DNA from: an uncultured Eubacteriales bacterium
GTDB taxonomy: Bacteria > Bacillota > Clostridia > Christensenellales > QALW01
Direction of reading: 5' to 3'
DNA length: 64,000 bases
Assembly: GCA_900547955.1 (NCBI GenBank)
Contig: URIR01000003.1
Coordinates: forward strand, 11,711-75,710
This document shows, one piece after another, positions 1,651-63,448 of this stretch (its first letter is position 1; every line of letters begins with the position of its first letter). The notes beneath the pieces are model-generated. The model made no database searches and was not told the DNA's origin. It saw only the letters and a list, made by a program, of their open reading frames with translations. Both the position numbers and the translations under genes were made by a program.

Positions 1651-1696
1651 CCATAGTGAAATTTATTTTCCGGCACGCGGAGCGCTGCATATACGG

Positions 1697-3604
1697 TCAG
1701 ATATCAAGGTCGGCTACAAGCAGAGCGTTCTGCTCTATAAATTCGCGCCGCGGCTCTACCTGGTCTCCCATCAGTATGGTAAATATCTGGTCGGCCGCCA
1801 TAGCGTCGTCTAATGTCACCTTAAGCAGCGTTCTGGTTGCGGGATTCATGGTGGTTTCCCAAAGCTGCTCTGCGTTCATTTCGCCCAATCCCTTATAGCG
1901 CTGCACCTCGTAATTCTGTCTGTCTATGGATTCAAGATATTGGTTCAGCTCTGTGTCATTGTAAAAATAGCTTATTTGCTTTGTGCGGGTCAGCGTCACT
2001 TTGAAGAGCGGCGGCTGGGCAATGTATACATAACCCTCCTCTATAAGCTTGGGCATATGCCGGAAAAAGAAGGTTAAAAGCAGGGTGCGTATATGGCTTC
2101 CGTCCACATCGGCGTCCGTCATGCATATTATCTTATGATAGCGCAGCTTTTCAGCATTGAACTCTACGTCTATGCCGGCGCCGAATGCGGTTATCATGGC
2201 CCGTATTTCGGCATTTTGAAGCATCTTGTCCAGCCGGGTGCGCTCTACGTTTAATATTTTGCCGCGCAGGGGAAGTATGGCCTGGAATTTGCTGTCGCGG
2301 CCCTGCTTTGCGCTTCCGCCCGCGCTGTCCCCCTCTACTATGAATATTTCGCAGTTTTCTGGATGGTTGTCCGAGCAGTCTGCCAGCTTGCCGGGCAGCG
2401 CGTTGGATTCCAGCACGTTTTTGCGCCGGGTAAGCTCTCTCGCCTTGCGCGCGGCCTCCCGCGCTCTGTTGGCCGTCAGGCATTTGTCTATTATGGCCCG
2501 CGCTTCATCCGGATGCTCTTCCAAAAATGCGTCCAGCGTGCTGCCCACCACGTTATCTACCAGCGAACGGAATTCCGAATTGCCCAGCTTGGTTTTAGTC
2601 TGTCCTTCAAACTGCGGCTCCTCCAATTTAACGCTTATAACCGCTACCAGCCCTTCGCGCACATCCTCGCCCGACAGGGAAGCCTCGTTGCTTTTTAGCA
2701 TATGGTGCCGCTTAGCGTAGTCGTTGACCACTCTAGTCAAGGCCGTCTTAAAGCCCTGAAGATGAGTGCCTCCCTCGTGAGTAGCTATATTGTTTGCGTA
2801 GGTATATATTAATTCATTATAGTTGTCGTTGTACTGCATGGCCACTTCCACTATGGAGGCGCCCTTGTCTCCTTCCATATAAAGCGGCTCGGGAGTCAGT
2901 GCATTCTTGTTCTTATTTAAATATTTAACAAATTCTATTATGCCGCCCTCATAATGAAATTCATCCTGGCGCCCTTCGCCGCGTTCATCCTTAATGCGTA
3001 TGCGTATGCCTTTATTCAAAAAGGCCAGCTCGCGCAGCCGGCTGCGTATTGTCTCGTAATTGAATTCTACTGTTTCAAATATCTCGCTGTCCGGCCGGAA
3101 ACGCTCATAGGTGCCCGTGCTTTGACATTCACCTATCACGGTAAGCTCATTAATGGGGTCTCCCCGGCGGTAATCCTGGGAGTATATTTTGCCGTTCCGG
3201 CTTATCTCCACATGCAGCTCCTCGCTCAGGGCGTTGACTACGCTCATGCCTACGCCGTGCAGGCCGCCTGAAACCTTATAACCGCCGCCGCCGAATTTAC
3301 CGCCCGCGTGCAGGATGGTCATGGCTACCTCTACGGCGGGCTTATGGTATTTTTCGTGCATATCTACCGGTATGCCGCGGCCGTTGTCCCGCACGCTTAC
3401 CGTTCCGTCTGCGTGCAGAATAACCTCTATGGTATCGCAGTAGCCTGCCAGCGCTTCGTCTATGCTGTTGTCCACCAGCTCGGTGACGAGGTGATGCAGG
3501 CCTCTTTCGTCAGTAGAGCCTATATACATTCCCGGCCTGCGGCGTACTGCCTCCAGCCCTTCCAGCACCTGAATTTGAGAAGCATCGTAATTGTTTTGCT
3601 GCAT
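1697..3604 (-). CDS. gyrB: DNA gyrase subunit B
   Basis: 635-aa ORF with the N-terminal ATPase signature [25 protein letters not shown], the Toprim [14 protein letters not shown] motif and the C-terminal [15 protein letters not shown]. Confidence 0.98.
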
Positions 3605-4424: not shown

Positions 4425-6143
4425 TTAGGGAATCAGCTGGGCGTTGCGCCTGAGCAGCTCCATATACGAAGGGCCTACAATTTGTCTGAGCGCGCCTTCC
4501 TTAAAGGGCGAATCCAGCCCCATTTCCTCAAGCAGCTGAGGATAGGTGAACTGCGCGCCCTTTTGGACCAGCTTCATATATGTCTCCAGTCCCGCATTAT
4601 AATCCTCCCGCATTATATTGAGCAGCATGAACGCCGCAGACTGAGCCAGGCAGTAATCTATATAATAGAAGGGGTGCATGTAGATATGCAGCTGCCGCTG
4701 CCACCAGCCGCCCTTTGCGAAATAGCATATATCGCCGTAATCTATATCGGGACGGTAGGCGCTTTCCAGCTTCAGCCATTCCTCATGCCGCTCCTGTGGA
4801 GTCAGCTCAGGATTGTCGTAAACTATGTGCTGGAATCTGTCCACCATGCAGCCGTAGGGCAGGAAGATTATTGCGTCTGCAAGATGCTGATAGATGAATT
4901 TATCCTTTTTCTCCCCGAAAAACAGTCCCATATAGGGGTAAGTCATAAATTCCATGCCCATGGAATGAATTTCGGCTATATCGTAGGAGGGCTCTTCCTG
5001 CTCGATATATTTGACCTTTCGAAGGGATATATAGCTGTTAAGGGCATGCCCGCATTCGTGGGTGAGCACCTCTACGTCTCCTGCCGTGCCGTTGAAATTG
5101 GCAAAAACAAAGGGCGCCATAAAGTCGGGGATGCTGGTGCAGTAGCCTCCGCTGGCCTTGCCGTCCCTGCTCAGAACGTCAAACAGCCCGTTGGAGAGCA
5201 TAAATTCTATAAATTCAGCCGTGAGGGGAGAAAGCTCGGTATACATTTTCCGGCCCTTCTCGAATATTTCCTCAGGGGTTCCCTGAGGGCGGGGGTTGCC
5301 CTCCTTAAAGCTCAGGGAGCGGTCCCATATCATTGCGTCCTCTATGCCGTTGCGGTCGTGCTGAAGCTTTATAAGATGGGTAGCCAGGGGCACTATCTCT
5401 CTGCGTACCTGCTCGCAAAAGGCTTCGGTTTCCTTCCGGCCGTAGTCGGCCCGTTTAAGGCGGCAGTAGGCCATGTCGGTAAAGCTGTCAAAACCCAGCT
5501 TTTTGGCCATGCGGGTGCGGGTTTTCACCAGCTTGTCAAATATTTCGTCCAGTTTTGCGCCGTTTTCTTCCATGAATTTGCTTTCTGCTTCCCATGCGCG
5601 CCGGCGTATTTCCCTGTCCGGGTTTTGTTTAAAGGGTGTGAGCCGGCTTAAATTGACCGTTTGCCCGTCAAAGGGAATCTGAGCCGAGGCTATGAGCCTT
5701 TGATATTCGCTCTGAAGCCGGTTCTCTTCAGCCATATCTTCGGCAATTTCGGGAGAAAACGCCTTTTGGGCCAGCCGTGCGTTAAGAAAATAGGTTTCTC
5801 CCAGTTCTCTGCGAGCCAGCTCCTGAAATGGAGAATTCATTACTGCGCGGCTGAGGTCGGTGGAAAGCTGCTCCGCCGAGGGCATGTTCTGGTCGTAATA
5901 GTCGTTTTCCGCGCTGTAGAATTCGTCCTGGGTATTTATAGTGTGACGGATATAGCAGATATTGTACATGGTAGATAATCGGCGCTTAAAATGGTCCGCC
6001 TGCTTGAGCAGCTCCAGAAATTCCTCGGGGCTTTGCGCGGAACAAAGCTTTTCAGGGATGGAGGAGATTTCGGGCGGTATGGGCGTAAGAGGCACTCTTT
6101 GATATTGATAATCGTCAAATTTCATTGGGTTAATCCTTTCCAT
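4425..6143 (-). CDS. pepF: Oligoendopeptidase F family (M3B) zinc metallopeptidase
   Basis: 572-aa ORF with an HExxH zinc site (LTHECGHALNSY). Length and overall pattern fit M3B oligoendopeptidases. Confidence 0.88.
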   Translation of the reverse strand: MERINPMKFDDYQYQRVPLTPIPPEISSIPEKLCSAQSPEEFLELLKQADHFKRRLSTMYNICYIRHTINTQDEFYSAENDYYDQNMPSAEQLSTDLSRAVMNSPFQELARRELGETYFLNARLAQKAFSPEIAEDMAEENRLQSEYQRLIASAQIPFDGQTVNLSRLTPFKQNPDREIRRRAWEAESKFMEENGAKLDEIFDKLVKTRTRMAKKLGFDSFTDMAYCRLKRADYGRKETEAFCEQVRREIVPLATHLIKLQHDRNGIEDAMIWDRSLSFKEGNPRPQGTPEEIFEKGRKMYTELSPLTAEFIEFMLSNGLFDVLSRDGKASGGYCTSIPDFMAPFVFANFNGTAGDVEVLTHECGHALNSYISLRKVKYIEQEEPSYDIAEIHSMGMEFMTYPYMGLFFGEKKDKFIYQHLADAIIFLPYGCMVDRFQHIVYDNPELTPQERHEEWLKLESAYRPDIDYGDICYFAKGGWWQRQLHIYMHPFYYIDYCLAQSAAFMLLNIMREDYNAGLETYMKLVQKGAQFTYPQLLEEMGLDSPFKEGALRQIVGPSYMELLRRNAQLIP

Positions 6144-6247: not shown

Positions 6248-6334
6248 TTAAATGATATAGTATTATATATTATATGTGTATGCAATAATTATATCTGGAT
6301 AAAAATTAACCAATTATTAACATTTGAGCGGGCG

Positions 6335-6426
6335 GGGGCCGGCGTTTGGCAGGCGCCGCAGGCGCCTGCCTGGGCCGGGCGCTGCCGCGCCCGGCCTGCG
6401 GCCGTACGGCCGCAAACGCCGGCCCC
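6335..6426. repeat. GC-rich cloverleaf palindrome (four-way junction), member 1
   Basis: Outer stem ggggccggcgttt (6335-6347) pairs with aaacgccggcccc (6414-6426). It encloses three perfect hairpins: ggcaggcgcc-gca-ggcgcctgcc (6348-6370), ggccgggcgc-tgcc-gcgcccggcc (6373-6396) and tgcggccg-ta-cggccgca (6397-6414). Confidence 0.85.
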
Positions 6427-6502
6427 GCAGAATAAAGCCGGGAAGAACGCTCAAAGATATAGCCCTGCTAGAAAGCGCAAAGCGGGCGGGATTATATAAT
6501 AA

Positions 6503-6594
6503 GGCGCCCCTGCCGCCGCGCAGCGTGCGGCGGCAGGGGCGCCCGGGCGCGCGTAAAACGCGCGCCCTCCTTTAAAGGGCGGGGCGTCCCCGCG
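6503..6594. repeat. Two perfect GC hairpins plus the CCTTTAAAGGGCGGGGCG motif
   Basis: A 17-bp stem ggcgcccctgccgccgc / gcggcggcaggggcgcc at 6503-6543, a 9-bp stem gggcgcgcg-taaaa-cgcgcgccc at 6545-6567, and the motif at 6565-6591. Confidence 0.8.
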
Positions 6595-6710
6595 ATTAAC
6601 GCATAAGCCTTCTAGAAAAGAAATTTTCAACCGTTTCAGCTTAAAAAACCTTTGTATTCTCCTTAAAACCCGTTTGTAATAAAAAATTTAAGAAAAATTA
6701 AAAAAACCGC

Positions 6711-24269: not shown

Positions 24270-24307
24270 GTAGTAAATAATTATACGCTGTTTCCCGGGC
24301 ATCTGCT

Positions 24308-24509
24308 TTTAGGAGCGCCTAAGCAGTTAAAGGGCCAGGGGGGCGGCGCGCCGCCCGGCCGAGCCAAAGGCTCGGCCGGGCCAGGCGGCCCGCATAATCC
24401 GGGGGCTTTTAGCCCCCGGATTATGCGGGCCGCCTGCTTTTGGCGCCCGTAAGGGCGCCAAAAGGGCGCGCCGCCCCCCTGGCCCTTTAACTGCTTAGGC
24501 GCTCCTAAA
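24308..24509. repeat. GC-rich cloverleaf palindrome (four-way junction), large member
   Basis: Perfect 45-bp outer arms at 24308-24352 and 24465-24509. They enclose three abutting perfect hairpins at 24353-24381, 24382-24436 and 24437-24464, with no unpaired junction nucleotide. Confidence 0.9.
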
Positions 24510-24975: not shown

Positions 24976-26362
24976 GGATTACAGAGCCAGGGCGACCTTG
25001 TCTCTGCCCGCAGCCAAGGAGAAACTGGCGAGCGACATAATGTTTGTATATCCACAAGCGCGGATGTAGAGGAGGTGATGGTTGAAATGCTTTTTAATCT
25101 TAAGGCGCACGCTGAAAATTCGCAGGCCAGCGTTAAGGTCGGCGTCGTTATATTTAATAAGCAGGCTAACGTAACCTGTGTCCTTACCGATATTCAGACG
25201 GGCTATGAGGATATTTTAGAGGGCATCAGGACGGATATAAGCAGCGGCACCAATACTCATGCCGGTATCTTAGCGGGCAAAAAAATGCTGGATGAGGATT
25301 GCGCGGTGCCGGCCAGGCGAAAATATCTGATTTTTATAAGCGATGCGATAACATATATATAACGAAGAGCCTGCTGCTATTCCATCGCAGTTTGCGGAAA
25401 ACGCCGTATTTGCTGGTCCGGACGCATGGGCTAATAAATATCAGAATAATAATCCTCCAAGCGACTGTAATGAATTTTTGACTTCCGTCGGCGTTCAGAT
25501 TGAGGCGGATGGAGATACCTTTGAAGCAAACTACGGAGCAAAGGAGCCGTTTATCCCCTATTCAGAACGCAGCGGGCATGCTATGACGGTAGCTAAGGCG
25601 CTGTATAATACGGCCATGGCTTATAAAAGCGCCCAGGATGCGGGATATACCTGCTATGCCATAACAGCTTCCGCGTCGGCAGCCGCCTCCGAGCAATATT
25701 CATGGGGCCCTTCCTTTATGAATTATCTGGCTCAGGGAGAGAAGGTATCCTTTGACGGAATATACAATGAGGCAATATATCTTTTGGATGCGGGCAGCAG
25801 GGTTATTGACGTAATAGGCAGCGGGTAAGGCCAGTATAGGGACGGAGAGCTTATTGATAAGGGATATAATTTTGTAAACAGTCCGGAGACGCTGGAATTG
25901 AAGGTAGGGGAAGATAAATACGCGCTGACCCGGCTGGAGAATAAGGTATATGCCTTTGGAGAGGAGAACGGACAAAATCAATATCCCTTCATACTGCGTT
26001 ATTATCCCGAGGGGACTGCCTCAGAGCCGCGCGAGCATTTAGTTTGGGAAATTAACGCGCCGGTGGATATAACCAGACGGGCGAGCCTTACATATACTGT
26101 GGAGCTTGCCGACCCGCAGTCTGAGGCAGGGCTGTACACGCAGCTTTATACCAATGAGGAGGCAATTATATATCCTGTGGATACATGCGGCAGCGAAGGC
26201 GAGGGAGAATATTTTGAAAGACTTGCGGCAGCTTACAGAATTTTGCCTATGGAGGAGGAGCACCCGACGGGAGACGCCGGAGTTCTTCTGCTATGCTGCA
26301 TATTGGGCGTATGCGTCTCAGCCGTAATTTTGCTTAAAGTCTTAAAGGTCAGAAACGAATAG
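24976..26362 (+). pseudogene. Remnant of a vWA-domain, sortase-anchored surface protein
   Basis: Three ORF fragments (25075-25362, 25478-25828, 25898-26362) read through as one protein if two lesions are repaired. One is a frameshift at the (AT)4A tract at 25353-25361; the other is an in-frame TAA at 25826-25828. vWA motifs are present (SGTNTHAGI, LIFISDA). The C-terminus is HPTGD followed by a TM segment and a basic tail. The signal peptide and the DxSxS motif are missing. Confidence 0.75.
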
Positions 26363-26459
26363 AGGCCGGGGAGCAATTAGAAAACATTTAGTGCAGGAAA
26401 AACTCCTGGTCAGGGCGGGCCGCACGGCTATACTCCTGGATAAAGGCTGACGCTGCCAG

Positions 26460-26501
26460 AATAATGGACCGTCCATAATAGGATGGTCCATTATTTTTTT
26501 T
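26460..26501 (+). terminator. Intrinsic terminator after the vWA remnant
   Basis: Stem aataatggacc / ggtccattatt followed by a T-run. Confidence 0.65.
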
Positions 26502-26509
26502 GCGCCGGC

Positions 26510-26996
26510 GGAACCGTTCCGAGAGACTGATGAAATTGTACTGAGCTGGAAAAAGAGAAGAAAAGGGAAGCGGAACGTGAGAAAAATTTGTCTAGTATAT
26601 GAACAATTATAAGCATACTATATTTGGATATAACCATTTATTCCCTGTAAAAACCTGTGTAAAAAATCGTGAAAAGCAATAAAATTTAAAAAAAATCAGA
26701 AAAAAACGCAAAAATCTATTGCTTATCCACAGGTTTTTTGGTATCATTTATATTGCCGTCAGCGATTAGAGTAGCGCGGCGGCGATTTATAGTTCGGAGC
26801 TTAAAATGCTTTAAAAATATGCAAATCGCCCTTATATGGGCGTTTTTAGCCATTTAGGCCAATGAATAAATCTAGGGATTGTGCCTTATTTTAATAGGTC
26901 ATACACCATATAGAGTTATCAACAGCCTGTGGAAAAGTTTTGGACTATAAATTGTACTTTTTACTCGGTTAATATTTTTCTGGGGGTTGTTGAAGC
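26510..26996. promoter_or_regulatory. oriC-like AT-rich spacer with DnaA boxes upstream of dnaA
   Basis: One perfect DnaA box TTATCCACA at 26723-26731. TTATCAACA at 26916-26924 faces TGTGGAAAA at 26928-26936 (complement TTTTCCACA). Long A/T tracts lie around 26660-26715. Confidence 0.6.
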
Positions 26997-28322
26997 ATGC
27001 AGGATGCAAGTGAAATCTGGGCAAAGGTATCCGCCGTATTAAAAGAGACAAAGGAGATATCCAGCTTGGCCTATACTACCTGGCTTGCGTCTATAAAGCC
27101 GGCGCTTTTTCGGAACGACTGCCTATATCTGGTAGTACCCTCGGCGCTGCACCGAAATCATATTGTAGGAAACAGCAATTATAAAATATATATCAATACT
27201 GCGCTTAATATGGTCACGGGCAAGGAATGCTCTGTTGAGCTGCTGCTGGAGGGAGAAGTCAAGGATGTTATGCAGAGCGCCGTCCAGCCCAATAAATGGC
27301 CTATGCTCAACGACAAATATACCTTTGAAACCTTTGTTATAGGTCCCAGCAATCAGTTTGCCCAGGCGGCGGCTTTAAGCGTAGCCGAAGCGCCTGCTAC
27401 GCAGAATAACCCGCTTTTTATATACGGCGGCGTAGGGCTGGGCAAGACCCATTTAATGCATGCTATAGGCAACTATGTTTTGGAGCAGAATCCGGCTGTG
27501 CGCGTTTTATATACCACCTGTGAGAAATATACAAACGAATATATAGATTCCATACCTAAGAACCGGGTTGCAGCCTTTAGAGAGCATTACAGGAACAACG
27601 TGGATATTCTAATGATAGACGATATCCAGTTCCTCACCCGCAAGGAGCGTATTCAGGAGGAATTTTTCCATAATATTAACGAATTAGTATCGGCGAACAA
27701 GCAGATAATTATAACCAGCGACCGGCCGCCGCGGGATATAGCCACGCTGGAGGATAGGCTGCGCTCCCGCTTTGAGGGCGGATTGATAGTGGATATAACG
27801 CCGCCTGATTTGGAGACAAGAGTTGCTATTCTGCGCCTTAAGGCCGAGGCCTTTGGGGCGGTATTGGATAACGAGCTGCTGTTTTACATAGCCGAGCGGG
27901 CAAGCGACAACGTGCGCGAATTGGAAGGCTCTCTTAAGCGGGTTATAGCTTATTCCAGCATAATGGGGCAGGATATAACCTTTGAGCTGGTTTCGGAGGC
28001 TTTAAAGGACTATAACGCCGTACAGCAGCGCACCTTGACCGTGGATAAAATCATGGAGACGGTAGCGGAGTATTACGGCGTGGAGGTAGAGGAATTGGTG
28101 GGCAAAAAAAGAGACGCGGCTATAGTTATGCCCAGGCATATAGCTATGTATCTCTGCCGTGAGCATACCGACCTGTCTTTTCCCCGCATAGGAGACGAAT
28201 TTGGGGGCCGGGACCATTCTACCGTTATAAACGGCATAGGCAAGATACATCAGGCGCTTAAGACGGACCCTAAGGTAAAAACCTATGTGGAGGACATAGA
28301 GCGCCGGCTTCAAGGGGTTTAA
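26997..28322 (+). CDS. dnaA: Chromosomal replication initiator protein DnaA
   Basis: 441 aa; AAA+ Walker A GGVGLGKTHL; C-terminal DNA-binding domain DHSTVINGIGKI. Confidence 0.98.
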   Translation: MQDASEIWAKVSAVLKETKEISSLAYTTWLASIKPALFRNDCLYLVVPSALHRNHIVGNSNYKIYINTALNMVTGKECSVELLLEGEVKDVMQSAVQPNKWPMLNDKYTFETFVIGPSNQFAQAAALSVAEAPATQNNPLFIYGGVGLGKTHLMHAIGNYVLEQNPAVRVLYTTCEKYTNEYIDSIPKNRVAAFREHYRNNVDILMIDDIQFLTRKERIQEEFFHNINELVSANKQIIITSDRPPRDIATLEDRLRSRFEGGLIVDITPPDLETRVAILRLKAEAFGAVLDNELLFYIAERASDNVRELEGSLKRVIAYSSIMGQDITFELVSEALKDYNAVQQRTLTVDKIMETVAEYYGVEVEELVGKKRDAAIVMPRHIAMYLCREHTDLSFPRIGDEFGGRDHSTVINGIGKIHQALKTDPKVKTYVEDIERRLQGV

Positions 28323-28416
28323 AAACTGTTTCGTGCCGGACGGGCAATAAGGGCTGAGCATAAAGGCGCAGAGGCTAAGGCGTGCAGCACCGCTCAGACG
28401 GGGAGAATAAGCTAAA

Positions 28417-28504
28417 CAACCCGGCGGCGCCGCGGCCTGCGGCCGCGGGCCGGGCCTTTTGGCCCGGCCGGGCAGGCGCAAAGCGCCTGCGCGCCGCCGG
28501 GTTG
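28417..28504. repeat. GC-rich cloverleaf palindrome (four-way junction), member 2
   Basis: Outer stem caacccggcggcgc (28417-28430) pairs with gcgccgccgggttg (28491-28504). It encloses cgcggcc-tgc-ggccgcg (28431-28447), ggccgggcc-tttt-ggcccggcc (28448-28469) and gcaggcgc-aaa-gcgcctgc (28472-28490). Confidence 0.88.
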
Positions 28505-35677: not shown

Positions 35678-35712
35678 TATGTATCTCCTTTCGGTATAAG
35701 AATTTTAATGCA

Positions 35713-35863
35713 GGGGGGCCGCCCCGCCCTTAAAAGGAGGGCGCGCCCTGGGGACGCTGGAATCTAACCGCTTAAGCGGAAACCGGTTTTTATTCGGACG
35801 CAGGCAATTTTGAGTCCGCGCCCGGCCCTTAAGGCGCGCACGTTCTGCGCGCGCCTTAAGGGC
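35713..35863. repeat. GC-rich palindrome cluster between dapF and dapL
   Basis: The motif is present in reverse orientation at 35713-35748. The palindrome ccgcttaagcgg is at 35769-35780. A 15-bp perfect stem gcccttaaggcgcgc / gcgcgccttaagggc spans 35825-35863. Confidence 0.8.
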
Positions 35864-36012
35864 ATTATATATATCCCCGCCCGCGGCCCTGAGCCGCTGC
35901 GCGCTGCGCCGAGGCGTTTATATTGAGCATGGGCCGTAACTGCGCAGGCCGCTTTGCGCGGGTATTTGCGTTTTAGCTTTTAAAGGCCTCCGTTTTATGG
36001 GCATAAACTATT

Positions 36013-39000
36013 TTACACCATAACCGTGCCGTCAAAGACCTTTACTGCGTTGCCTGTCATATACACCTCGCCCGTATCGGTATACCTTATCTTAAGCTCT
36101 CCGCCCAGCAGCTTAACGGTTATATCGGTATTTTTATCGCAGAGTCCGTTTTCTACGGCTGCTACGGCCGCCGCGCAGGCGCCTGTGCCGCAGGCCCAAG
36201 TTTCCCCGCTGCCCCGCTCCCAGACGCGCATTTTAAGAGTAGCGCGGTCTATAACCTTGACAAATTCGGCGTTGACCCTCTCGGGGAACAGCTCGCTGTG
36301 CTCAAACTGAGGACCAATCTTTTCCAGCGGGAAGAAATCTACGTTTTCAACAAATACTACGCAGTGGGGATTGCCCATGGAGACGCAGGTTATATGGTAA
36401 TTTTCCCCGCCTATATTTACCTGCCGGCCTATGACCTTATCTCCCTCTAATTTTACCGGCACCTCCTCCGGCCTGAGCTGCGCCGCGCCCATATTCACTC
36501 TGGCCGAGGTGGCTACGCCGTTCTGCGTATACACCCTTATGCTCTTTATGCCCGAAAGGGTTTCAAGGGTCATAACCTCTTTATTAACCATATGGTTGTC
36601 GTATAAATATTTGGCGACGCAGCGGGACGCATTGCCGCACATCCTGCCTTCGCTGCCGTCCAGATTGAACATGCGCATTTTGGCGTCCGCCTTGGAGGAG
36701 GGGCATATTAATACCACGCCGTCGCCTCCTACTCCGAAATGCCTGTCGGCCAGGCGTATGGACAGCCCCTCCGGGTTGTCTATATGCTGCTCAAAGGCGT
36801 TAAAATAGATATAGTCGTTTCCGCAGCCGTGCATCTTGGTGAACTTGAGCTGGGTGCGCTTGGTGCGCATATGGTTGATGTCCACCAGCTCGCAGTTCAA
36901 TTCGGAATAGCGGCTCTTTATGCTGTCGGCTACGGCGTGAGCCGTGTCTATGGAGGTCAGGCAGGGTATGCTGCGCTCTACCGCCTTGCGCCGTATTTTA
37001 ACGCTGTCCCTGCCGGGCAGGCGGCCTTTGGCGCTGGTGGAGATAAGATAGTCTATTTTGCCGCTCTCTATAAGGGTGAGGGTGTTGACGTCGCTTTCGT
37101 GTATCTTGCTGACTATCTCGGCCTCCATGCCTGAGGCCTTTATAATTTCAGCCGTGCCCGCCGTAGCGTATAATTTAAAGCCCAAATCATAGAATTTCTT
37201 GGCTACTGCCGCAATCTCGGGCTTATCAGAATCGCGCACCGAGAGGAATACGCCCTTTTTGGAGGAGCTGACCGCCTTGCGCAGCTTATAGCCCGCCGCA
37301 ATAAGCCCTTTATAAAGCGCTTCCTCCAGGGTTCCCGCCAAGCCCAGCACCTCGCCCGTGGATTTCATTTCGGGCCCAAGATGGCTGTCCACGTTGGCCA
37401 GCTTTTCAAAGGAGAATATGGGCACCTTAACCGCGAAATACGCGCCCTGGGGATAAAGCCCCGTGCCGTAGCCCATATCGTAGAGCTTTTCGCCCAGCAT
37501 GGCGCGGGTGGCCAGCGCCACCATGGGTACGCCCGTTACCTTGCTTATATAAGGCACGGTCCGGGAGGAGCGCGGGTTGACCTCTATTACATAAAGCTGG
37601 CCGTTATATATGACGTACTGGATGTTTATAAGCCCCTTGGTATTCAGAGCCAGAGCCAGGCGGCGGGTGCAGTCCACTATGCGGCTGACCATGCGGTCGC
37701 TTAAGTTGTAGGCGGGATATACGCTTATGGAATCGCCCGAATGCACGCCCGCCCGCTCTATATGTTCCATTATGCCGGGGATGAGTACGTCCTCCCCGTC
37801 GCAGATGCCGTCTACCTCTATTTCCAGCCCCATAAGGTATTTATCTATTAATACCGGATTCTCTATGCCCTGGGAGAGGATTATCTGCATGTATTCCCTG
37901 ACGTCCGAATCGTTAAAGGCGATTATCATATTCTGGCCGCCCAGCACATAGGAGGGACGCAGCAGCACGGGATAGCCTATTTCATTTGCGGCGGCCAGCG
38001 CGCCCTGAGCGTCGGTTACCGAATGCCCCTTGGGCCGCTCTATCTTTAATTCCTCCAGCAGTTCGTCAAAGCGTTCGCGGTCCTCCGCCCGGTCTATGCT
38101 GTCCGCGCTGGTGCCTAAAATGTTTTCTCCCCGTTCAGAAAGGAACCTGGTCAGCTTGATGGCCGTCTGGCCGCCGAAGGCTACTACGACGCCCCAGGGC
38201 TTTTCTGTTTCAAGCACGTTGCGCACGTCCTCGGGAGTGAGGGGTTCAAAATAAAGCCGGTCGGCGGTGTCAAAGTCGGTAGAGACGGTTTCGGGGTTGT
38301 TATTGACTATAACCACTTCAAAGCCGGCGTTTTTAAGCGCCCAGACGCAGTGCACCGAGGCGTAGTCAAATTCTATGCCCTGGCCTATCCGGATGGGGCC
38401 GGAGCCGAATACTATTACCGTCCGCTTGCGCTCGGGCAGCTCCTGAATAAATTCCTCAGCCTCGTTTTCCTCTTCAAAGGAGGAGTAGAAATAGGGGGTT
38501 TCGGCGCTGAATTCGGCCGCGCAGGTATCCACCATCTTAAATACCGCAACAGCGGGATTCTCTACCCTTTGCCCCGAAAATTCCTCTATGACGCTGTCTA
38601 AAAAGCCCATGCGCTTGGCGCGCAGGTAGGTCTCTCTGTCAAAGCCCTGCTTAAGGGTGTTTTCCATATCTATGATGTTTTGAATCTTATATAGGAACCA
38701 TAGGTCTATCTTGGTTATGTCGTGTATTTCCTCGGGGGAAACTCCCTTCCTGAGCGCGTCGGCCACGATAAACAGGCGCTCGTCGGTAGTTTCATGCAGG
38801 CGGGAGAGCGCTTCCTCCCGCGGCAGGTCGTATTTTTTGGAATAGAGGCTCTTAAGCCCTATTTCGGCGCCCCTTACCGCCTTTAGCAGGGCTTCTTCAA
38901 AGGTAACGCCTATGGCCATAACCTCGCCCGTGGCCTGCATCTGGGTGCCTAACTGGCGTTTGGCGTATACGAATTTATCAAAGGGCCATTTTGGCAGCTT

Positions 39001-40062
39001 AACTACTACGTAATCCAGCGCAGGCTCAAAGCAGGCGCTCTTGCCCGTTATGGCGTTGGCGATTTCGTTGAGATTATAGCCTATGGCTATCTTGGCGGCC
39101 ACCTTGGCTATGGGATAGCCCGTGGCCTTGGAGGCCAGCGCGCTGGAGCGGGATACGCGGGGATTGACCTCTATTACGGCGTATTCAAAGCTCTCGGGAT
39201 TGAGGGCGAACTGGCAGTTGCAGCCTCCCTCCACCTTTAGGGCGGAGATAATGTCCAGCGCCGCCGTGCGCAGCATCTGATATTCCTTATCGGCTAAGGT
39301 GACGGCGGGCGCGACTACTATTGAATCTCCCGTATGTATTCCTACGGGGTCTAAATTTTCCATGCTGCATATGGTTATAACGTTGCCTGCGCCGTCCCGC
39401 ATGACCTCGAATTCAATTTCCTTCCAGCCGGCAATGCATTTTTCCACCAGTATCTGGCCTATGGGGGAGAGCCTTAGGCCGTTGACGGCAATATCCGCCA
39501 TTTCCTCGTCGTTATTGACTATGCCGCCGCCGCTGCCGCCTAGTGTGAAAGCTGGGCGGATAATGAGGGGATAGCCTATTTCACGGGCGAAGGAGAGCGC
39601 GTCCTCAAGGGTGGTCACTACTCTGGAGGGAATGCAGGGCTGATTAATGCTCTGCATGGTGTCCTTAAACAGCTGGCGGTCCTCGGCTTTATCTATGGTT
39701 TCAGGATTGGCCCCCAGCAGGCGCACGCCCATCTGCTCCAAGAAGCCGTCCTTGGCTAACTGCATGGAGAGGGTCAGGCCCGTCTGGCCGCCTAAGGTGG
39801 AAAGCAGGCTGTCCGGGCGCTCCTTTTCTATTATGCGCTTTATTACGGGCAGGGTTAAAGGCTCGATATATATGCGGTCGGCCATAGCGCTGTCCGTCAT
39901 TATGGTGGCCGGATTGGAATTAACCAGGACTACCTCCAGGCCGTCCTCCTTAAGCGCGCGGCAGGCCTGGGTGCCCGCGTAGTCAAATTCGGCCGCCTGC
40001 CCTATGACAATGGGCCCGGAGCCTATAACCATGACTTTTTTTATGCTTTTGTTAAGCGGCAT
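36013..40062 (-). CDS. carB: Carbamoyl-phosphate synthase large subunit fused in frame to diaminopimelate epimerase
   Basis: Single 1349-aa ORF. Residues 1-1064 are a full-length CarB (two ATP-grasp halves plus an MGS-like tail). Residues 1065-1349 (nt 36870-36013) are a full DapF (FTKMHGCGNDY, GNASRC, ERGSGETWACGTGA). Confidence 0.93.
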   Translation of the reverse strand: MPLNKSIKKVMVIGSGPIVIGQAAEFDYAGTQACRALKEDGLEVVLVNSNPATIMTDSAMADRIYIEPLTLPVIKRIIEKERPDSLLSTLGGQTGLTLSMQLAKDGFLEQMGVRLLGANPETIDKAEDRQLFKDTMQSINQPCIPSRVVTTLEDALSFAREIGYPLIIRPAFTLGGSGGGIVNNDEEMADIAVNGLRLSPIGQILVEKCIAGWKEIEFEVMRDGAGNVITICSMENLDPVGIHTGDSIVVAPAVTLADKEYQMLRTAALDIISALKVEGGCNCQFALNPESFEYAVIEVNPRVSRSSALASKATGYPIAKVAAKIAIGYNLNEIANAITGKSACFEPALDYVVVKLPKWPFDKFVYAKRQLGTQMQATGEVMAIGVTFEEALLKAVRGAEIGLKSLYSKKYDLPREEALSRLHETTDERLFIVADALRKGVSPEEIHDITKIDLWFLYKIQNIIDMENTLKQGFDRETYLRAKRMGFLDSVIEEFSGQRVENPAVAVFKMVDTCAAEFSAETPYFYSSFEEENEAEEFIQELPERKRTVIVFGSGPIRIGQGIEFDYASVHCVWALKNAGFEVVIVNNNPETVSTDFDTADRLYFEPLTPEDVRNVLETEKPWGVVVAFGGQTAIKLTRFLSERGENILGTSADSIDRAEDRERFDELLEELKIERPKGHSVTDAQGALAAANEIGYPVLLRPSYVLGGQNMIIAFNDSDVREYMQIILSQGIENPVLIDKYLMGLEIEVDGICDGEDVLIPGIMEHIERAGVHSGDSISVYPAYNLSDRMVSRIVDCTRRLALALNTKGLINIQYVIYNGQLYVIEVNPRSSRTVPYISKVTGVPMVALATRAMLGEKLYDMGYGTGLYPQGAYFAVKVPIFSFEKLANVDSHLGPEMKSTGEVLGLAGTLEEALYKGLIAAGYKLRKAVSSSKKGVFLSVRDSDKPEIAAVAKKFYDLGFKLYATAGTAEIIKASGMEAEIVSKIHESDVNTLTLIESGKIDYLISTSAKGRLPGRDSVKIRRKAVERSIPCLTSIDTAHAVADSIKSRYSELNCELVDINHMRTKRTQLKFTKMHGCGNDYIYFNAFEQHIDNPEGLSIRLADRHFGVGGDGVVLICPSSKADAKMRMFNLDGSEGRMCGNASRCVAKYLYDNHMVNKEVMTLETLSGIKSIRVYTQNGVATSARVNMGAAQLRPEEVPVKLEGDKVIGRQVNIGGENYHITCVSMGNPHCVVFVENVDFFPLEKIGPQFEHSELFPERVNAEFVKVIDRATLKMRVWERGSGETWACGTGACAAAVAAVENGLCDKNTDITVKLLGGELKIRYTDTGEVYMTGNAVKVFDGTVMV

Positions 40063-56586: not shown

Positions 56587-56994
56587 AGGGAGCTAAGCCG
56601 GCATTGAATAAGAAATGATTTTCTTGATGCAGAATTAAGATAGTATGAATATAAATTAAATTCTTAGTCCTGTGCGGACATATTTATTGATCTTTAAATT
56701 GCCTATTAGCCGCATGCTAGAAAGAAATCTGGTATTGCCGCGGCAGTTTGCTGCGCGCGGGTGGGTCGATATATATGGGCGCTAAGCTTATTGCAATGAT
56801 AAAAAACAGAAGCCGGAATGAAAAATAAACATCCGTGATGATGCGAAAGACGGCTGCGCCCGTTTTGGCGAGCGTTTAGCGAACCAAAACTCTTTAAAGG
56901 GCGGGAGCGCGCTCTGCATGAATAAGGAGATACAAGCATTTAATAGTCGAAAGACTTATTATTCAAGGCCTATGGGTCTGTTGGAGGTAAGGAT

Positions 56995-58982: not shown

Positions 58983-59061
58983 TGAGGTCAAGCAGTCGGT
59001 CTGCCGCTTGTATATGCGGCTGAGGCATAAAAAAACAGATTGCGGTGTAAAAAATAGGCTT

Positions 59062-59117
59062 AAAAAACGGGACAGGGGCGCAGCTTATACCTATGCCCCT
59101 GCCTAGTCCGTTTTTTT
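59062..59117. terminator. Bidirectional terminator between convergent genes
   Basis: aaaaaacgggacaggggc ... gcccctgcctagtccgttttttt: a GC stem flanked by an A-run and a T-run. Confidence 0.6.
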
Positions 59118-59149
59118 CGGTTATATGAGCCGTTTTATATGGAACGGCA

Positions 59150-61873
59150 TTATTCTTTTACCAGCCTGTAGGAATACTCCGCTTGCGGGTCGCCCGAGTG
59201 CTGGACGTTAAAGGTAAGTTCATATGAGCCGTCCTGCGCGTTATAGTAGGTTTGCCAGTAATCGTTGCCCAGGTATGCCTGTTCTATCTGTTCCCATTGT
59301 CCGTCCTTCAGGGCTTCCAGTCTATAGCCTGAATAGGAGGGGACTCCGGTAAAGGTGATGGGTATATAGCTTATGCCGCCCTTGACGGTAATCTGGGCAA
59401 GCACATCCTGGTTTTGCGCGCATTTTACGGCGATGGGATACTGGCGGAGTATTTCTCCAATCTGCGCCGAAGCCTGAGTCTTATCTCCTATGGCGTAGCG
59501 GTAGGCTAATTTCCAGGTATTGAATTCCTCCTCAGGAATGCTTTTTATGACGGGGCTGTCAAAATAATAGCTGGAGAGGGATATGGGCAGATTTATATAT
59601 TCCACCGCGCCTTTTACCGTGCTGCCCGCTTGTATAGTATTGCCGGCCTCTGCTGGTGGGCAGAGCTCCACAAGGGTGGAATTGCCGCAGAACATTTGGG
59701 TGCTGCGCAGGTTAAAGGCGGGCTTTGAATAGCTTTTGCCGTTCAAATTGGCTTCAAACTCCAGCAGGCTGAGCATACGGTTTGCGTTCTGCGAATCAAA
59801 ATAGTCTGAATTTATTTTTTTATAGCTGTCGGTATATGCTATCCACATACCCTCGCCGGGGACCTCCAGGCGCTGCATGCCGTTATGGCCGATATAGCCG
59901 GCGGTATCATATACTGGGATTTCCGCTTGAGCGCCGTAGGTTACGCCGTCTATAACATATTCTATCGGGCCGTCGTCGTTCCCTATGGTTATGCCGTGCC
60001 AGCGGCCGCTGTTATGATTATCCGCGCCCAGCTGATAGAAGGCCATTCTTTCAAAGCTGACGTCTTTGATAAAGCGGTATTCAAAGGTATGGGTTGCGCG
60101 GGAGACGTCGTTTGTACGGCCCAGGTAGGTTGCCAGGGTAAATTCTACGGCGTCGTCCTTGGTTATGCCTGTAAAAATTATTTCAGCCAGGTTGGGAGCG
60201 TAATTTTTATAGAATACCCGAACATTTTTAAAGCCTACAATACCAGAGGTATTAGCGCCGTCCTTGCCGTAATACAGGAAATTTCCTCCTCCGTTATTAG
60301 CTCCCCACACATATTTTTGGCCGCTGTCATAGGGGTCGAAGCCGACGCCGCGGACGTCGTTAATAAATGCCAGGCCGCAGGTTTGGTCGGGGTCATAGCA
60401 GAAGGCTTCCCCGCTGGAGCCTATCGTGCTGGTCTGCCAGACCTGATGGGTGCTGTTGGACGGCCAGCCTATAAGGCATAATTGGGCATGACTGGCGACC
60501 TTGAGCGTGCCCCAGTTGTTAAAGGCGTTCATATATTCATAGGTGACGCTGGAATTAGCGGGCACCTCCAGATAGGTATAGCCATGGTACCACGAGCCGT
60601 CCAGGCCTTTATACCATTCCTTTTGGGTAACAGAGCTGTCAAATGGGTGCCAGTTTTTAGATATCTGGACGGGTATGCCCATTGGTTCTCCGGTATCTGC
60701 GTCCCGTATAACCGGCCCAAAGCCTTCTACTGCGAAGGTGCCGCTTTTTTCAAACATGACGGGCACGGTTACGGTACGGCTGGAATTATTTTTTAAAGTA
60801 AAGAGCACTCTGTCGCAGGCGTTTTGGTTACGTTCCTGTGCAAAGGCCGTTCCCTTAGCGGTGGTCATGCGGTTAGTGTCTATGACCCATACGCCTCTGT
60901 CGGCGTCGAACTGAACTGGCACTTCCCGGCCTTCGCGGGGAGAAATTTGGCGTGCGGTAATTTCCATACCAGCTATAGCGTTATAATTATCAATATCGGC
61001 TTGGGATGGGGAGTCGCTGGGGATGATTATAGCGCTGAAGCCGCTGAATTTATATTGTTCCAGCGTTATTCCCAAACAAGTCATAGTTAAGGTTTTGGAG
61101 GCTTGGTCGTAGGAGAGGGAGGCGTTCGGGTTAGGCAGAATGACGGCCAGGCCCGAGCCGTTTTTAGCGGTCAGCAGCATTTCCCGGCCGTTTGAGGAGG
61201 GGGAGGCGGTCATTTCCTCAGAAAACTGCAGGGAATATGTAAGGGCTGCGTTGGAAAAGTTTTTTTGGGCGAATAATTGATAGTTCAGCGCGAAGTATTC
61301 GGGCAGGGCTTTAATTTCTGTACGGCCTATAAAATCATTGGTACGCTTTCCTGAGGAGTCTGCAAAAATCATAGCGGCTGTGTCGAAAGACTGCATATAC
61401 TGTCCGGATTCTATTATGCGCATATTGATTGTATGGTATTGGGCGGGCTGTATTATATTAGTGAACGTATATGATATATTATCTATTGACGCCGCACTAG
61501 AAGCTTTTATCTCGGGCAGGCTGTTTATAACTGAGGAATCTTGAGACATAATTTGGGTTTGACTGTATTCTTCTTTTATAACGCCTAGTCTGTCTAGCAT
61601 ACCGTTTGAGCCGTTAAAGCTCATGCCATAGTAGCCGGTTTGCACAAAGAATTTATTCTTTTCCGAGATTCCGGTGCCTTCAGGCCACCAGGAATAGGCG
61701 TAGTCGCGTATTTCCGGCTGCTGGGCATAGGTATTGCCGATATAGGGATTTAGTTCGGATGAATCTTCTTTAGGCGGGAGCGAGGGATTATGGGATGGGG
61801 ATGGGTTATCGGTGCAAGAGGTTAATGAGAGGCTTATAGCTCCGGTGAGCAGCAATGCGGCAAGTTTTTTCAT
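59150..61873 (-). CDS. Large lipoprotein of unknown function
   Basis: 907 aa; lipobox LSLTSC; I recognise no catalytic motif or domain. Confidence 0.85.
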   Translation of the reverse strand: MKKLAALLLTGAISLSLTSCTDNPSPSHNPSLPPKEDSSELNPYIGNTYAQQPEIRDYAYSWWPEGTGISEKNKFFVQTGYYGMSFNGSNGMLDRLGVIKEEYSQTQIMSQDSSVINSLPEIKASSAASIDNISYTFTNIIQPAQYHTINMRIIESGQYMQSFDTAAMIFADSSGKRTNDFIGRTEIKALPEYFALNYQLFAQKNFSNAALTYSLQFSEEMTASPSSNGREMLLTAKNGSGLAVILPNPNASLSYDQASKTLTMTCLGITLEQYKFSGFSAIIIPSDSPSQADIDNYNAIAGMEITARQISPREGREVPVQFDADRGVWVIDTNRMTTAKGTAFAQERNQNACDRVLFTLKNNSSRTVTVPVMFEKSGTFAVEGFGPVIRDADTGEPMGIPVQISKNWHPFDSSVTQKEWYKGLDGSWYHGYTYLEVPANSSVTYEYMNAFNNWGTLKVASHAQLCLIGWPSNSTHQVWQTSTIGSSGEAFCYDPDQTCGLAFINDVRGVGFDPYDSGQKYVWGANNGGGNFLYYGKDGANTSGIVGFKNVRVFYKNYAPNLAEIIFTGITKDDAVEFTLATYLGRTNDVSRATHTFEYRFIKDVSFERMAFYQLGADNHNSGRWHGITIGNDDGPIEYVIDGVTYGAQAEIPVYDTAGYIGHNGMQRLEVPGEGMWIAYTDSYKKINSDYFDSQNANRMLSLLEFEANLNGKSYSKPAFNLRSTQMFCGNSTLVELCPPAEAGNTIQAGSTVKGAVEYINLPISLSSYYFDSPVIKSIPEEEFNTWKLAYRYAIGDKTQASAQIGEILRQYPIAVKCAQNQDVLAQITVKGGISYIPITFTGVPSYSGYRLEALKDGQWEQIEQAYLGNDYWQTYYNAQDGSYELTFNVQHSGDPQAEYSYRLVKE

Positions 61874-61972
61874 AGATGCTCCTCCTTAATTTATTTAATT
61901 GTAGTTATTATAAGCAATGCAAATAAGGAATGTCAATATAGAAACGGATATAATTTTCAGGTGGCGGCGGCG

Positions 61973-62287
61973 TTCCCGCCCGTTTTGCTTTATGCTCCTT
62001 GGGAGCATAAAGCAAAACAATAATGAGGCCGGCTTAAGCCGGCCGGGTATGGCCGCGGCCCATATCCGCCGCGGCCATACCTCTTAATTTTACCCACCCG
62101 CGCGCCGCTGAGAAACGTTAGGGCGCCGTCAGGCGCGGGACCGGGGGCGGGCGGGAAAGATAAAGGCCATCAGGCACCGGTTTAGGCGCCTGATGGCGTA
62201 CGGCTTAAGCCGTACTCATTTTTTGCCGCTAACCCATCCGGGGAATTTCCCGGATGGGTTAGCGGCTGTCCGGCCTTACGGCCGGAC
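61973..62287. repeat. Array of at least 8 distinct perfect GC-rich hairpins
   Basis: Perfect stems at 61982-62018 (17 bp), 62027-62044 (18-nt palindrome), 62046-62081 (13 bp), 62166-62197 (10 bp), 62198-62215 (18-nt palindrome), 62225-62266 (18 bp) and 62268-62287 (8 bp). An enclosing stem ttcccgcccg (61973-61982) pairs with cgggcgggaa (62148-62157). Confidence 0.88.
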
Positions 62288-62317
62288 GGGGTGGGATAAG
62301 CCCCCGGATTAAAAAAC

Positions 62318-63448
62318 TTACTTCATGTATTTTATTAATCGTAGAATGTCGTTGACCGTACTGCGCAGATTTTTTTCACTTTTATGTCTGCTTATAGAAA
62401 AATCTTCGGGCAGTCGGTTTATAGGAAAAACGGCGGTAACGCCTAGATTATATGCTGGGGCCAAGTCTTCCGATGCACCTCCTGTAATAACAAGTACTGG
62501 AACGCCTGCTTTTTTCGCATGGCATGCGATGCCTATAACCGCTTTTCCATATATACTTTGGCTGTCTATTCTGCCTTCGCCGGTAAAAACTATATCGGCG
62601 TCCTGCAGCTGTTTATCAAAATTCACCATATCTAAAATTATGTCTATGCCCATTTTGAGTTGAGCATTAAAAAATGCGGCGGCTCCTGCACCCATGCCGC
62701 CTGCAGCGCCCCCGCCGGGTAGATTGGATATATCTTTTCCTAAATCCTGTTTGATTATTTCGCTTATATGCCGGAGACCTTGGTCTAAAAGTTTAACCTG
62801 CGCTTTGCTTGCTCCCTTTTGCGGCGCAAAGACATAAGCCGCTCCGTTTTCACCGTATAATTCGTTGCTTATATCGCACATAGCAAGTATAGGTATTGAG
62901 GTTATACTGGGAGTTAGTCCTGATACATCAATGTGAAATATATCCTTTAAAGTACCGCCGGTTGGTATAAAGGGTTTGCCGTTCTGGTTATAGAATTTAA
63001 CGCCTAGGGCTGCGGCCATACCGCAGCCGCAGTCATTAGTGCATGAGCCGCCAAGACATAAAATTATTCGTTTACAGCCCATATCCAGCGCGTTTAATAT
63101 TAGCTCGCCTACGCCGTATGTAGTAGTCAGCATTGGGGCTTTTCTGTTTTCAACCAAGGGCAGCCCGCTGCAAACGGCCATTTCTATAATTGCCGAGCCG
63201 TCATTAAGCAGAGCGTATGCGCCTGTCATGGACTGAAAAAATGGGTCGGAACATTGGGCTTCTATAATACTGCCGCCTAATGCCTGCAAAAAACAGGAGA
63301 GGCTGCCTTCCCCGCCGTCGGCTATAGGAATGGCCACTATCTGGCAGCTGGGAAAATGTATTTTAATCTGTTCTGATATTATTGTGCATATTTGAGCGGC
63401 AGAGAGTGTGCCTTTAAAGGAGTCGGGAATGATAATGACTTTTTTCAT
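62318..63448 (-). CDS. glxK: Glycerate kinase
   Basis: 376 aa; MKKVIIIPDSFKGTLSA... and the overall pattern fit the glycerate kinase family. Confidence 0.92.
   Translation of the reverse strand: MKKVIIIPDSFKGTLSAAQICTIISEQIKIHFPSCQIVAIPIADGGEGSLSCFLQALGGSIIEAQCSDPFFQSMTGAYALLNDGSAIIEMAVCSGLPLVENRKAPMLTTTYGVGELILNALDMGCKRIILCLGGSCTNDCGCGMAAALGVKFYNQNGKPFIPTGGTLKDIFHIDVSGLTPSITSIPILAMCDISNELYGENGAAYVFAPQKGASKAQVKLLDQGLRHISEIIKQDLGKDISNLPGGGAAGGMGAGAAAFFNAQLKMGIDIILDMVNFDKQLQDADIVFTGEGRIDSQSIYGKAVIGIACHAKKAGVPVLVITGGASEDLAPAYNLGVTAVFPINRLPEDFSISRHKSEKNLRSTVNDILRLIKYMK

Follow-up and report, generated by a model that had tools for sequence, protein, structure and literature searches.

Genomic locus

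The window analysed here is a 64-kb stretch of contig URIR01000003.1 from an uncultured Eubacteriales bacterium. In the spacer between the glycerate kinase gene glxK and a lipoprotein-like gene it holds a block of closely packed hairpins (61973-62287), which we show to consist of two inverted copies of a modular intergenic element, M. Loci with L numbers in what follows are contigs of relatives or other assemblies, several of them fetched via glxK homologues or by a DNA-pattern scan. The block is flanked by the following features:

62318-63448, minus strand: glxK, glycerate kinase (Pfam Gly_kinase, PF02595); its stop codon lies 10 nt before copy M1
61907-61936, minus strand: promoter of the lipoprotein gene, just downstream of copy M2 (TTGACA, 18 nt, TATAAT, a 12/12 match), followed by the ribosome-binding site AAGGAGG
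59150-61873, minus strand: 907-aa lipoprotein-like gene, downstream of the block and kept there in most lineages

The lipoprotein promoter is conserved in L008, L017 and L023. The lipoprotein-like protein has no Pfam match, and its length of 907 aa is the same in L005, L008, L017 and L023.

Counting perfect stems of at least 8 bp with loops of at most 12 nt, we find seven perfect hairpins in the block, with stems of 8-18 bp; in 2000 dinucleotide shuffles of the block the count averaged 0.18 and did not exceed 3. The fold of a 361-nt block has a z-score of -14.5, both as RNA (minus strand) and as DNA (plus strand). The region is 61% GC in a genome of ~50% GC, and the block sequence is identical in the independent assembly L001. 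The window as a whole contains 41 perfect hairpins, compared with 13.2 +/- 2.6 in shuffles, and 16 with stems of at least 10 bp, compared with about 1. All 16 of the latter are in non-coding DNA, where perfect hairpins reach 1.93/kb, a tenfold increase over the chance-level 0.19/kb of coding DNA; composition alone does not explain this density, as the census proposed in the first-pass annotation was meant to decide. That annotation, made from the sequence alone, had also reported eight or more perfect hairpins with unique, mismatch-free stems. The uniqueness and perfection of the stems, far beyond chance, are borne out and seven of the hairpins are perfect; the eighth (about 62097-62141) is an imperfect composite in a non-conserved linker. 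Tandem Repeats Finder detected no tandem repeat, the sole exact direct repeat being the 12-nt core of the HpB hairpins described below, and the block lacks the regularly spaced direct repeats of a CRISPR or tandem array.

Two inverted copies of one element

Comparison with a related structure (M3) ~2.3 kb away resolves the array into two oppositely oriented copies of M, each ~150-170 nt. On its G-rich strand M begins with the 5' strand of an outer helix (P1-5'), a G-box (GGGYGGG), an A-rich linker (AAAKATAAAG) and hairpin HpA, and continues with HpB, a U-rich linker (TCATTATTGT), HpC, a second G-box, 2-4 nt and P1-3'. The apex of HpA is often GCGGC-GGAYATGG-GCCGC; HpB is short, e.g. GGCCGGC-TTAA-GCCGGCC; the second G-box reads ACGGGCGGG or GGGGTGGG; and M1 has an extra hairpin, HpD, after HpC. 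On either strand each copy folds into a junction of three hairpins (four in M1) closed by P1. In the list below, stem lengths are those of the census, scores are from R1, a covariance model built from alignment A4 of ten three-hairpin copies, and M2 parts are given in plus-strand coordinates.

62141-62307, plus strand: M1, G-box strand antisense to glxK (R1 46.2 bits, E = 5e-8)
62141-62148, plus strand: M1 P1-5', CCGGGGGC
62149-62155, plus strand: M1 G-box1, GGGCGGG
62156-62165, plus strand: M1 A-rich linker, AAAGATAAAG
62166-62197, plus strand: M1 HpA, 10 bp perfect, 13 bp with one G.U/A.C
62198-62215, plus strand: M1 HpB, 9 bp
62216-62224, plus strand: M1 U-rich linker, TCATTTTTT
62225-62266, plus strand: M1 HpC, 18 bp
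62268-62287, plus strand: M1 HpD (extra), 8 bp
62288-62295, plus strand: M1 G-box2, GGGGTGGG
62300-62307, plus strand: M1 P1-3', GCCCCCGG
62109-62140, no strand: inter-copy linker, 32 nt, with imperfect local pairings; sequence and structure not conserved in relatives
61967-62108, minus strand: M2, G-box strand sense with glxK (R1 133.9 bits, E = 9e-27; alignment A4)
62103-62108, minus strand: M2 P1-5'
62093-62099, minus strand: M2 G-box1
62082-62092, minus strand: M2 A-rich linker
62046-62081, minus strand: M2 HpA, 14 bp, apex GCGGC-GGATATGG-GCCGC
62027-62044, minus strand: M2 HpB, 9 bp
62019-62026, minus strand: M2 U-rich linker, TCATTATT
61982-62018, minus strand: M2 HpC, 17 bp
61975-61981, minus strand: M2 G-box2
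61967-61972, minus strand: M2 P1-3'

This arrangement accounts for several features noticed at first sight. The structure is indeed multi-branched, with two junctions, each having its own outer helix P1. The two 18-nt palindromes that share the 12-nt core CGGCTTAAGCCG are the homologous HpB hairpins of the two copies. The complementarity of 61973-61982 with 62148-62157, previously read as a 10-bp stem enclosing the first hairpins, exists but is a by-product, the G-box1 of M1 facing the complement of the G-box2 of M2.

Two further sets of pairings were considered and rejected. Four long-range complementarities (CGGGGGC/GCCCCCG, CCCACCC/GGGTGGG, AATGAG/CTCATT and CCCGCCCG/CGGGCGGG) were taken for pseudoknots of a single ~340-nt RNA until the two inverted copies were resolved; they arise because the G-boxes and linkers of one copy face their reverse complements in the other, and in L008 and L017 the AATGAG/CTCATT pairing is disrupted. 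The second set, in which the A-rich linker would pair with the U-rich one, was dropped because CTCATTATT becomes CTCCTTGTT in M3 of L005 and L008 with no compensating change.

Inheritance of the block

The block follows glxK in relatives whose glxK is 72% (L005), 71% (L008/L009) or 69% (L006/L007) identical to that of the window, and occupies the same place in L005, in L006/7, in the Candidatus Neochristensenella gallicola-like group L008/9/19/21, and in L017/20/22. Two of these loci were added by the DNA-pattern scan: L019, from Candidatus Neochristensenella gallicola itself (a metagenome-assembled genome, MAG, from chicken), and L017, from a MAG labelled 'Selenomonadales bacterium CIM:MAG 469'. 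The block does not depend on either neighbouring gene, since it is present in L017, which has no glxK and carries the block directly after an rluB-like gene, and in L006, which has no lipoprotein gene. It is not present beside the more distant glxK homologues (about 60% identity).

Across the five lineages at this locus all hairpin positions are kept, and no single hairpin has been gained or lost. Stem sequences and lengths are entirely different, the short unpaired motifs are conserved, and the inter-copy linker essentially cannot be aligned from one lineage to another (alignment A2, columns about 224-262). The element is inherited vertically at the glxK locus: linkers and G-boxes are conserved in sequence, and stems, unique to each copy and lineage, are constrained only to pair. 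The first-pass annotation had looked to sister strains for gain or loss of individual hairpins, of which there is none here, the inter-copy linker alone varying freely. It had also named as an adverse outcome a whole block conserved as one unit with substitutions that ignore pairing; the block is one conserved unit, and its substitutions strongly respect pairing.

Searching a genome-contig collection with the glxK protein gave no match. The DNA-pattern scans returned only two true genome loci and four metagenome contigs, all four from the same clade; pattern matches in L018 (Hyphomonadaceae) and L024 (viral) were discarded as chance matches.

Compensatory evolution of the stems

Fifteen copies from five lineages can be aligned through their G-boxes and linkers. 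For the ten copies of A4, RNAalifold recovers P1 and three hairpins, with 21 of 37 pairs changed on both sides and pairing kept. Paired cells make up 96.7% of the alignment, compared with 78.5% in shuffles; the covariation score is 0.526, compared with 0.157 (none of 500 shuffles as high), and drops to 0.05-0.09 when the 3' partner is slid by 1-3 columns. Among the five M1 orthologues (window, L005, L006, L008 and L017), double changes are found at 21 of 50 predicted pairs. P1 covaries between copies too (GGGGGC/GCCCCC, GCGGCG/CGCCGC, CAGCAGCG/CGCTGCTG, GGCCGGCGC/GCGCCGGCC). Both G-boxes (G3+ Y G3+) keep all their G residues without exception, and their central base is C or T. In 56 hairpins from 19 copies there are about 695 Watson-Crick pairs and 8-10 non-Watson-Crick positions; of the wobbles, four are on the G-box strand and one is on the other, and one-sided changes from G-C to G-U hardly occur.

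The rate and manner of change can be read from pairs of relatives. Between L005 and L008 the stems have diverged by ~12% per site, compared with 24% at four-fold degenerate sites of glxK, and the inter-copy linker is saturated and nearly unalignable; twelve stem pairs differ on both sides and about five on one side only. The near-identical strains L008, L019 and L021 (glxK 97.3-97.7% identical) differ by four single uncompensated stem transitions and no double changes. Template-switch mutation is a documented route by which hairpins are created and maintained (PMC8794818, PMC7202029); its signature, loop inversions or one-step double changes, was sought in the close strains and none was seen. 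The stems have changed as expected of ordinary mutations that are later compensated under selection for pairing, and it is well supported that purifying selection keeps the pairing through compensatory substitution. One-step arm-to-arm copying by template switching might also keep the arms identical; no positive evidence of it was found.

Compensatory change at fixed loci, together with unique stems, rules out gene conversion between copies and recent transposition and implies constraint acting locus by locus. The earlier argument that recent copying and pasting of one identical element does not explain the stems stands. The family is a very clean natural example of compensatory evolution, its architecture kept and its stems diverging yet remaining near-perfectly Watson-Crick. 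Two questions are tractable in it: whether pairing is kept at the RNA or the DNA level, and what reads the G-boxes.

A dispersed family

M is not confined to the glxK spacer. At least five to six copies, all non-coding, were found in the 64 kb, and others in related loci. The copies and candidate copies beyond M1 and M2 are:

1510-1629, plus strand: short variant ending in GCGCCCCC-TTTTTT, between gyrB and gyrA and antisense to both (R1 28.1 bits, E = 4e-4)
6471-6597, plus strand: short variant consisting of G-box, ATTATATAATAA, 17-bp HpA, 9-10-bp HpB, TCCTTTAAAG and G-box (R1 32.7 bits, E = 4e-5), upstream of the S10 leader in the spacer of a divergent gene pair
24324-24484, plus strand: weak R1 match (17.8 bits) in the rplQ array described below
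35709-35896, minus strand: short two-hairpin variant with a 71-nt insertion in HpB, between the carB-fusion and aminotransferase genes (R1 34.2 bits, E = 2e-5)
56745-56915, plus strand: probable copy read from the sequence, with GCGGGTGGG, TCGATATATAT, the base of HpA, a ~70-nt AT-rich insertion, HpB, TCTTTAAAG and GGGCGGG
L001 4838-4985, just past the window end at 64000: M3, a full copy whose start, in every lineage, follows the stop codon of an AMP-binding-enzyme gene by 3-4 nt
L001 about 5010-5245: M4, a degenerate short variant in the opposite orientation to M3, upstream of the rluB-like gene

The short variants share the linker TCCTTTAAAG, and M3 and M4 form a second inverted pair. The probable copy at 56745-56915 is orthologous to L023 6252-6422; R1 gives 16 bits on that orthologue and no match in the window. 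A full three-hairpin copy with a 29-nt AT-rich loop in HpA was also observed at L023 8536-8703 (minus strand, R1 63 bits), in a 1.9-kb spacer on the far side of the lipoprotein gene of the N. gallicola-like lineage. The window counterpart of this spacer (58983-59149) is 167 bp long and has no copy, so this one represents either a lineage-specific gain or a lineage-specific loss.

Relative to flanking transcription, five copies are sense, three are antisense and one is in a divergent promoter region. An apparent excess of copies whose G-box strand is in sense with the gene upstream (6/7) was abandoned when it fell to 5:3 after the flanking genes, among them gyrA/gyrB, a pepF-like gene and dnaA, had been identified; an open reading frame (ORF) at 293-748 on the plus strand proved spurious, the region encoding gyrA on the minus strand.

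R1 found no match in the loci of more distant relatives, and the family appears confined to a narrow Neochristensenella-like lineage. Rfam 15 did not match the block at gathering or E-value thresholds; the best sub-threshold matches to the block or to M3 are generic hairpins, e.g. sraL at 28.6 bits where 39 are needed. The sole Rfam family in the window is the S10-Clostridia leader RF03136 (6770-6843, plus strand, 40 bits). ARAGORN found no tRNA or tmRNA in the window, BLAST against plasmids and phages gave no match to the element, and a literature search on repeats in Christensenellaceae or Clostridia turned up no relevant described repeat. We regard it as highly likely that M is a conserved, structure-selected repeat family, represented after glxK by two inverted copies.

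Function and alternative explanations

As an overall explanation we lean towards a structure-selected dispersed intergenic repeat that acts as punctuation. Our best guess is that this structure-dependent punctuation would consist of termination and/or 3'-end protection and insulation; that M is a structure-dependent terminator or insulator we propose tentatively. The core (A-rich linker, HpA, HpB, U-rich linker) would act as a bidirectional intrinsic terminator or as a structure protecting 3' ends. The glxK transcript would be stopped or stabilised at M1 HpA followed by CUUUAUCUUU and next at M2 HpB followed by UCAUUAUUGU, and would thereby be insulated from the strong promoter of the lipoprotein gene that directly follows. 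Probably the G-boxes and linkers either are the surface that a lineage-specific factor recognises or build a higher-order structure. The two G-boxes amount to four G3 tracts with one-base spacers, joined by P1, a pattern compatible with a G-quadruplex or a protein site.

The core resembles a bidirectional terminator because a terminator consensus scan flagged, in both copies, HpB with its U-rich tail on the G-box strand and HpA with CTTTATCTTT on the opposite strand. Six such sites were found, compared with 1.8 expected, with 6-7 U in the 10-nt tail and the tracts interrupted. The block lies precisely in the interval from the glxK end to a consensus promoter, and at the site of the perfect four-way structure after rplQ more distant relatives carry a plain terminator with a single hairpin.

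Several points weigh against this overall explanation. The U-rich tails are short and interrupted, and the only copy that ends in a clean T-run (1510-1629) runs antisense to the genes beside it. A simple terminator would not need P1, HpC or the G-boxes. Because copies occur in both orientations to flanking transcription, a strictly strand-specific RNA role is unlikely. The near-absence of G.U pairs is atypical of selection at the RNA level and hints at a DNA-level constraint or correcting mechanism. Finally, the family census covers only 64 kb plus about 100 kb of related loci. An independent small RNA gene using the linker as its -10 box was also considered and set aside, only M2 being weakly promoter-like and with no -35.

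Possible selfish element. M might instead be a REPIN- or BIME-like selfish element whose single-stranded DNA hairpins and asymmetric G-boxes are read by an HUH-type (RAYT- or TnpA-like) or other structure-specific enzyme; this enzyme would spread the copies, with inverted doublets such as M1/M2 as the mobilisable form. In IS200/IS605 and REP systems the same-strand motif stands at both ends, as the G-box does in M. All copies lie in intergenic DNA, scattered and in either orientation, two inverted doublets exist (M1/M2 and M3 with the degenerate M4), and Watson-Crick-only pairing with no strand preference for wobbles fits a DNA hairpin. We nonetheless consider this unlikely: stems differ among all copies in one genome and give no pointer to recent copying, and over deep divergence orthologous copies persist at the same loci and accumulate compensatory changes, as expected of locus-by-locus selection and not of turnover. 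No transposase or RAYT was detected among the 20 window proteins scanned with Pfam, no target-site duplications flank the copies, and no empty site was found for M1, M2 or M3.

Possible structured RNA family. Equally unlikely in our estimate is that the copies are cis-acting elements of 3' untranslated regions or small transcripts, with linkers and G-boxes forming tertiary structure, for example a G-quadruplex of four G3 tracts stacked on P1, or binding an RNA-binding protein. Covariation is strong, and the invariance of unpaired motifs resembles that of functional RNAs; M3 starts within 3-4 nt of the AMP-binding gene stop in every lineage; wobble-type pairs number four on the G-box strand and one on the other; and a G-quadruplex would require just such a pair of G3-Y-G3 boxes in which the middle base alone varies. 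Against this, three of nine copies are antisense to surrounding transcription, known RNA families have far more G.U pairs, the copies have no convincing promoters or terminators beside them, and no Rfam relative was found.

Possible structure-defined repeat with DNA-level correction. We give a still smaller chance to a new class of bacterial dispersed repeat, defined by structure and not by sequence, in which the four G3 tracts would form a G-quadruplex or a protein-bound clamp under the junction and the arms would be corrected against each other at the DNA level, leaving the stems Watson-Crick on both strands. If true, arm-to-arm correction in hairpins or cruciforms would explain both the scarcity of G.U pairs and the indifference to orientation, and the same process would also shape the four-way palindromes after rplQ, after dnaA and upstream of the S10 operon.

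Possible de novo palindromes. The first-pass annotation favoured hairpins made de novo, through template switching or snap-back synthesis, or else numerous different palindromic units inserted into one another. Perfect, unique stems speak for it, as do the documented template-switch mutations, the arrays at 24300-24505, 28412-28503 and 6322-6425, which are nested perfect palindromes within a perfect outer stem and without linkers, and the difference in hairpin content between lineages in one spacer (L001 380-445 versus L005 390-565). At the glxK locus the orthologue comparison largely refutes it. The array there is two inverted copies of one module, inherited as a block at 69-72% glxK identity; all hairpin positions are conserved in five lineages, and the conserved linkers come from one repeated module. 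Near-identical strains show single uncompensated stem transitions with no double changes or loop inversions, and the stems evolve more slowly than four-fold degenerate sites. We hold this origin to be very improbable.

Possible artefact. Chance or composition in a GC-rich spacer, or faulty assembly, deserves almost no credence: the GC contrast is real and several metagenome assemblies break inside the array, but seven perfect hairpins against 0.18 expected, the fold z of -14.5, the identical independent assembly and an architecture conserved in five lineages speak against it.

Other hairpin arrays and neighbouring features

Three further arrays in the window consist of an outer stem around three perfect hairpins:

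24300-24505: right after rplQ; three perfect hairpins of 13, 26 and 12 bp stand back to back inside a perfect outer stem of 44 bp (TTAGGAGCGCCTAAGCAGTTAAAGGGCCAGGGGGGCGGCGCGCC with its complement), and no base of the junction is unpaired
28412-28503: just after dnaA; without conserved linkers
6322-6425: in the divergent spacer that separates a peptidase-M3 gene from the S10 operon, adjoining the family copy at 6471-6597; without conserved linkers

The plain terminators found at the position of the rplQ array are in L025, L026 and L028. In the spacer between the homoserine dehydrogenase and htpG-like genes, hairpin content changes between lineages: the spacer is 60 bp in the lineage of the window (L001 380-445) and ~175 bp, with two extra perfect hairpins, in L005 (390-565) and L019 (7290-7440).

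Five independent metagenome contigs (L002, L003, L004, L010 and L030) end in or at the edges of arrays. L002 and L003 both end in the loop of the 62166-62197 hairpin, L004 ends 29 nt after glxK, and L030 breaks off within the rplQ array; of the contigs that bear rplQ, many are shorter than 1 kb. Hairpin arrays seem to break short-read assemblies. In practice, GC-rich hairpin clusters interrupt metagenome assemblies of this lineage, in at least five contigs, and could be mistaken for novel non-coding RNA genes or CRISPR-like arrays.

Other features of the window are:

1-3604: gyrB and gyrA, on the strand opposite to dnaA, with ribosomal-protein operons between
26176-26936: DnaA-box-like cluster directly upstream of dnaA (26997-28322), with one perfect TTATCCACA at 26723 and several one-mismatch sites; probably oriC
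36013-40062, minus strand: 1349-aa ORF with a complete carbamoyl-phosphate synthase large chain (CPSase_L_D1/D2/D3, MGS) and a C-terminal diaminopimelate epimerase domain (residues about 1100-1342); suggestive of an unusual fusion, a missed stop or a frameshift

Comparison with known systems

Dispersed intergenic palindromic repeats are well known in Proteobacteria and poorly charted in gut Clostridia. Set beside the known classes of structured intergenic DNA, M shares features with several.

Miniature inverted-repeat transposable elements have conserved terminal inverted repeats and a target-site duplication; M is not one of them, as its P1 inverted repeat covaries and changes from copy to copy, and M has no flanking direct repeats. 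The BOX elements of pneumococcus (A-B-C modules) and bcr1 of the Bacillus cereus group are dispersed modular intergenic repeats of 100-200 nt with stable predicted folds, sometimes co-transcribed with their neighbours. Their primary sequence is conserved throughout, and they are not known to have the pattern of conserved linkers and variable stems or G-box pairs.

Bidirectional intrinsic terminators resemble M in their GC-rich stems, bordered by an A-rich and, on the opposite side, a U-rich tract, and in their position between a gene end and the next promoter; a related array replaces the terminator after rplQ. M differs in its short, interrupted tails, its two to four hairpins, its outer helix and invariant G-boxes, and in having some copies where no transcript end is expected.

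The attC sites of integrons are, like M, defined by structure, with short conserved boxes and variable stems in which pairing is kept. An attC site is a single imperfect hairpin with extrahelical bases and R and L boxes (GTTRRRY), between gene cassettes beside an integrase, and M has none of these: the boxes RYYYAAC ... GTTRRRY do not occur in it, its ends are CCGGGGGC...GCCCCCGG or GCGGCG...CGCCGC, and its neighbours are housekeeping genes.

REP, BIME and REPIN sequences are closest to M in genomic behaviour. Both are strictly intergenic, multi-copy, GC-rich and palindromic, occur in both orientations and in inverted pairs with a short variable linker, and often lie just after stop codons, where they are able to stabilise or terminate transcripts. 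REPs are short (20-40 nt) imperfect palindromes whose sequence is common to a genome, whereas M is a multi-hairpin junction of 150-170 nt with nearly perfect stems unique to each copy, only the linkers, the G-boxes and parts of HpA and HpB being shared; M thus lacks the common palindrome that marks a REP. No RAYT (Y1 HUH transposase) was among the window proteins noted above, and the hosts differ, a Clostridia lineage for M and Proteobacteria for REP, BIME and REPIN. The M family is best read as a previously undescribed, REP/BIME-like, lineage-specific dispersed extragenic palindromic element.

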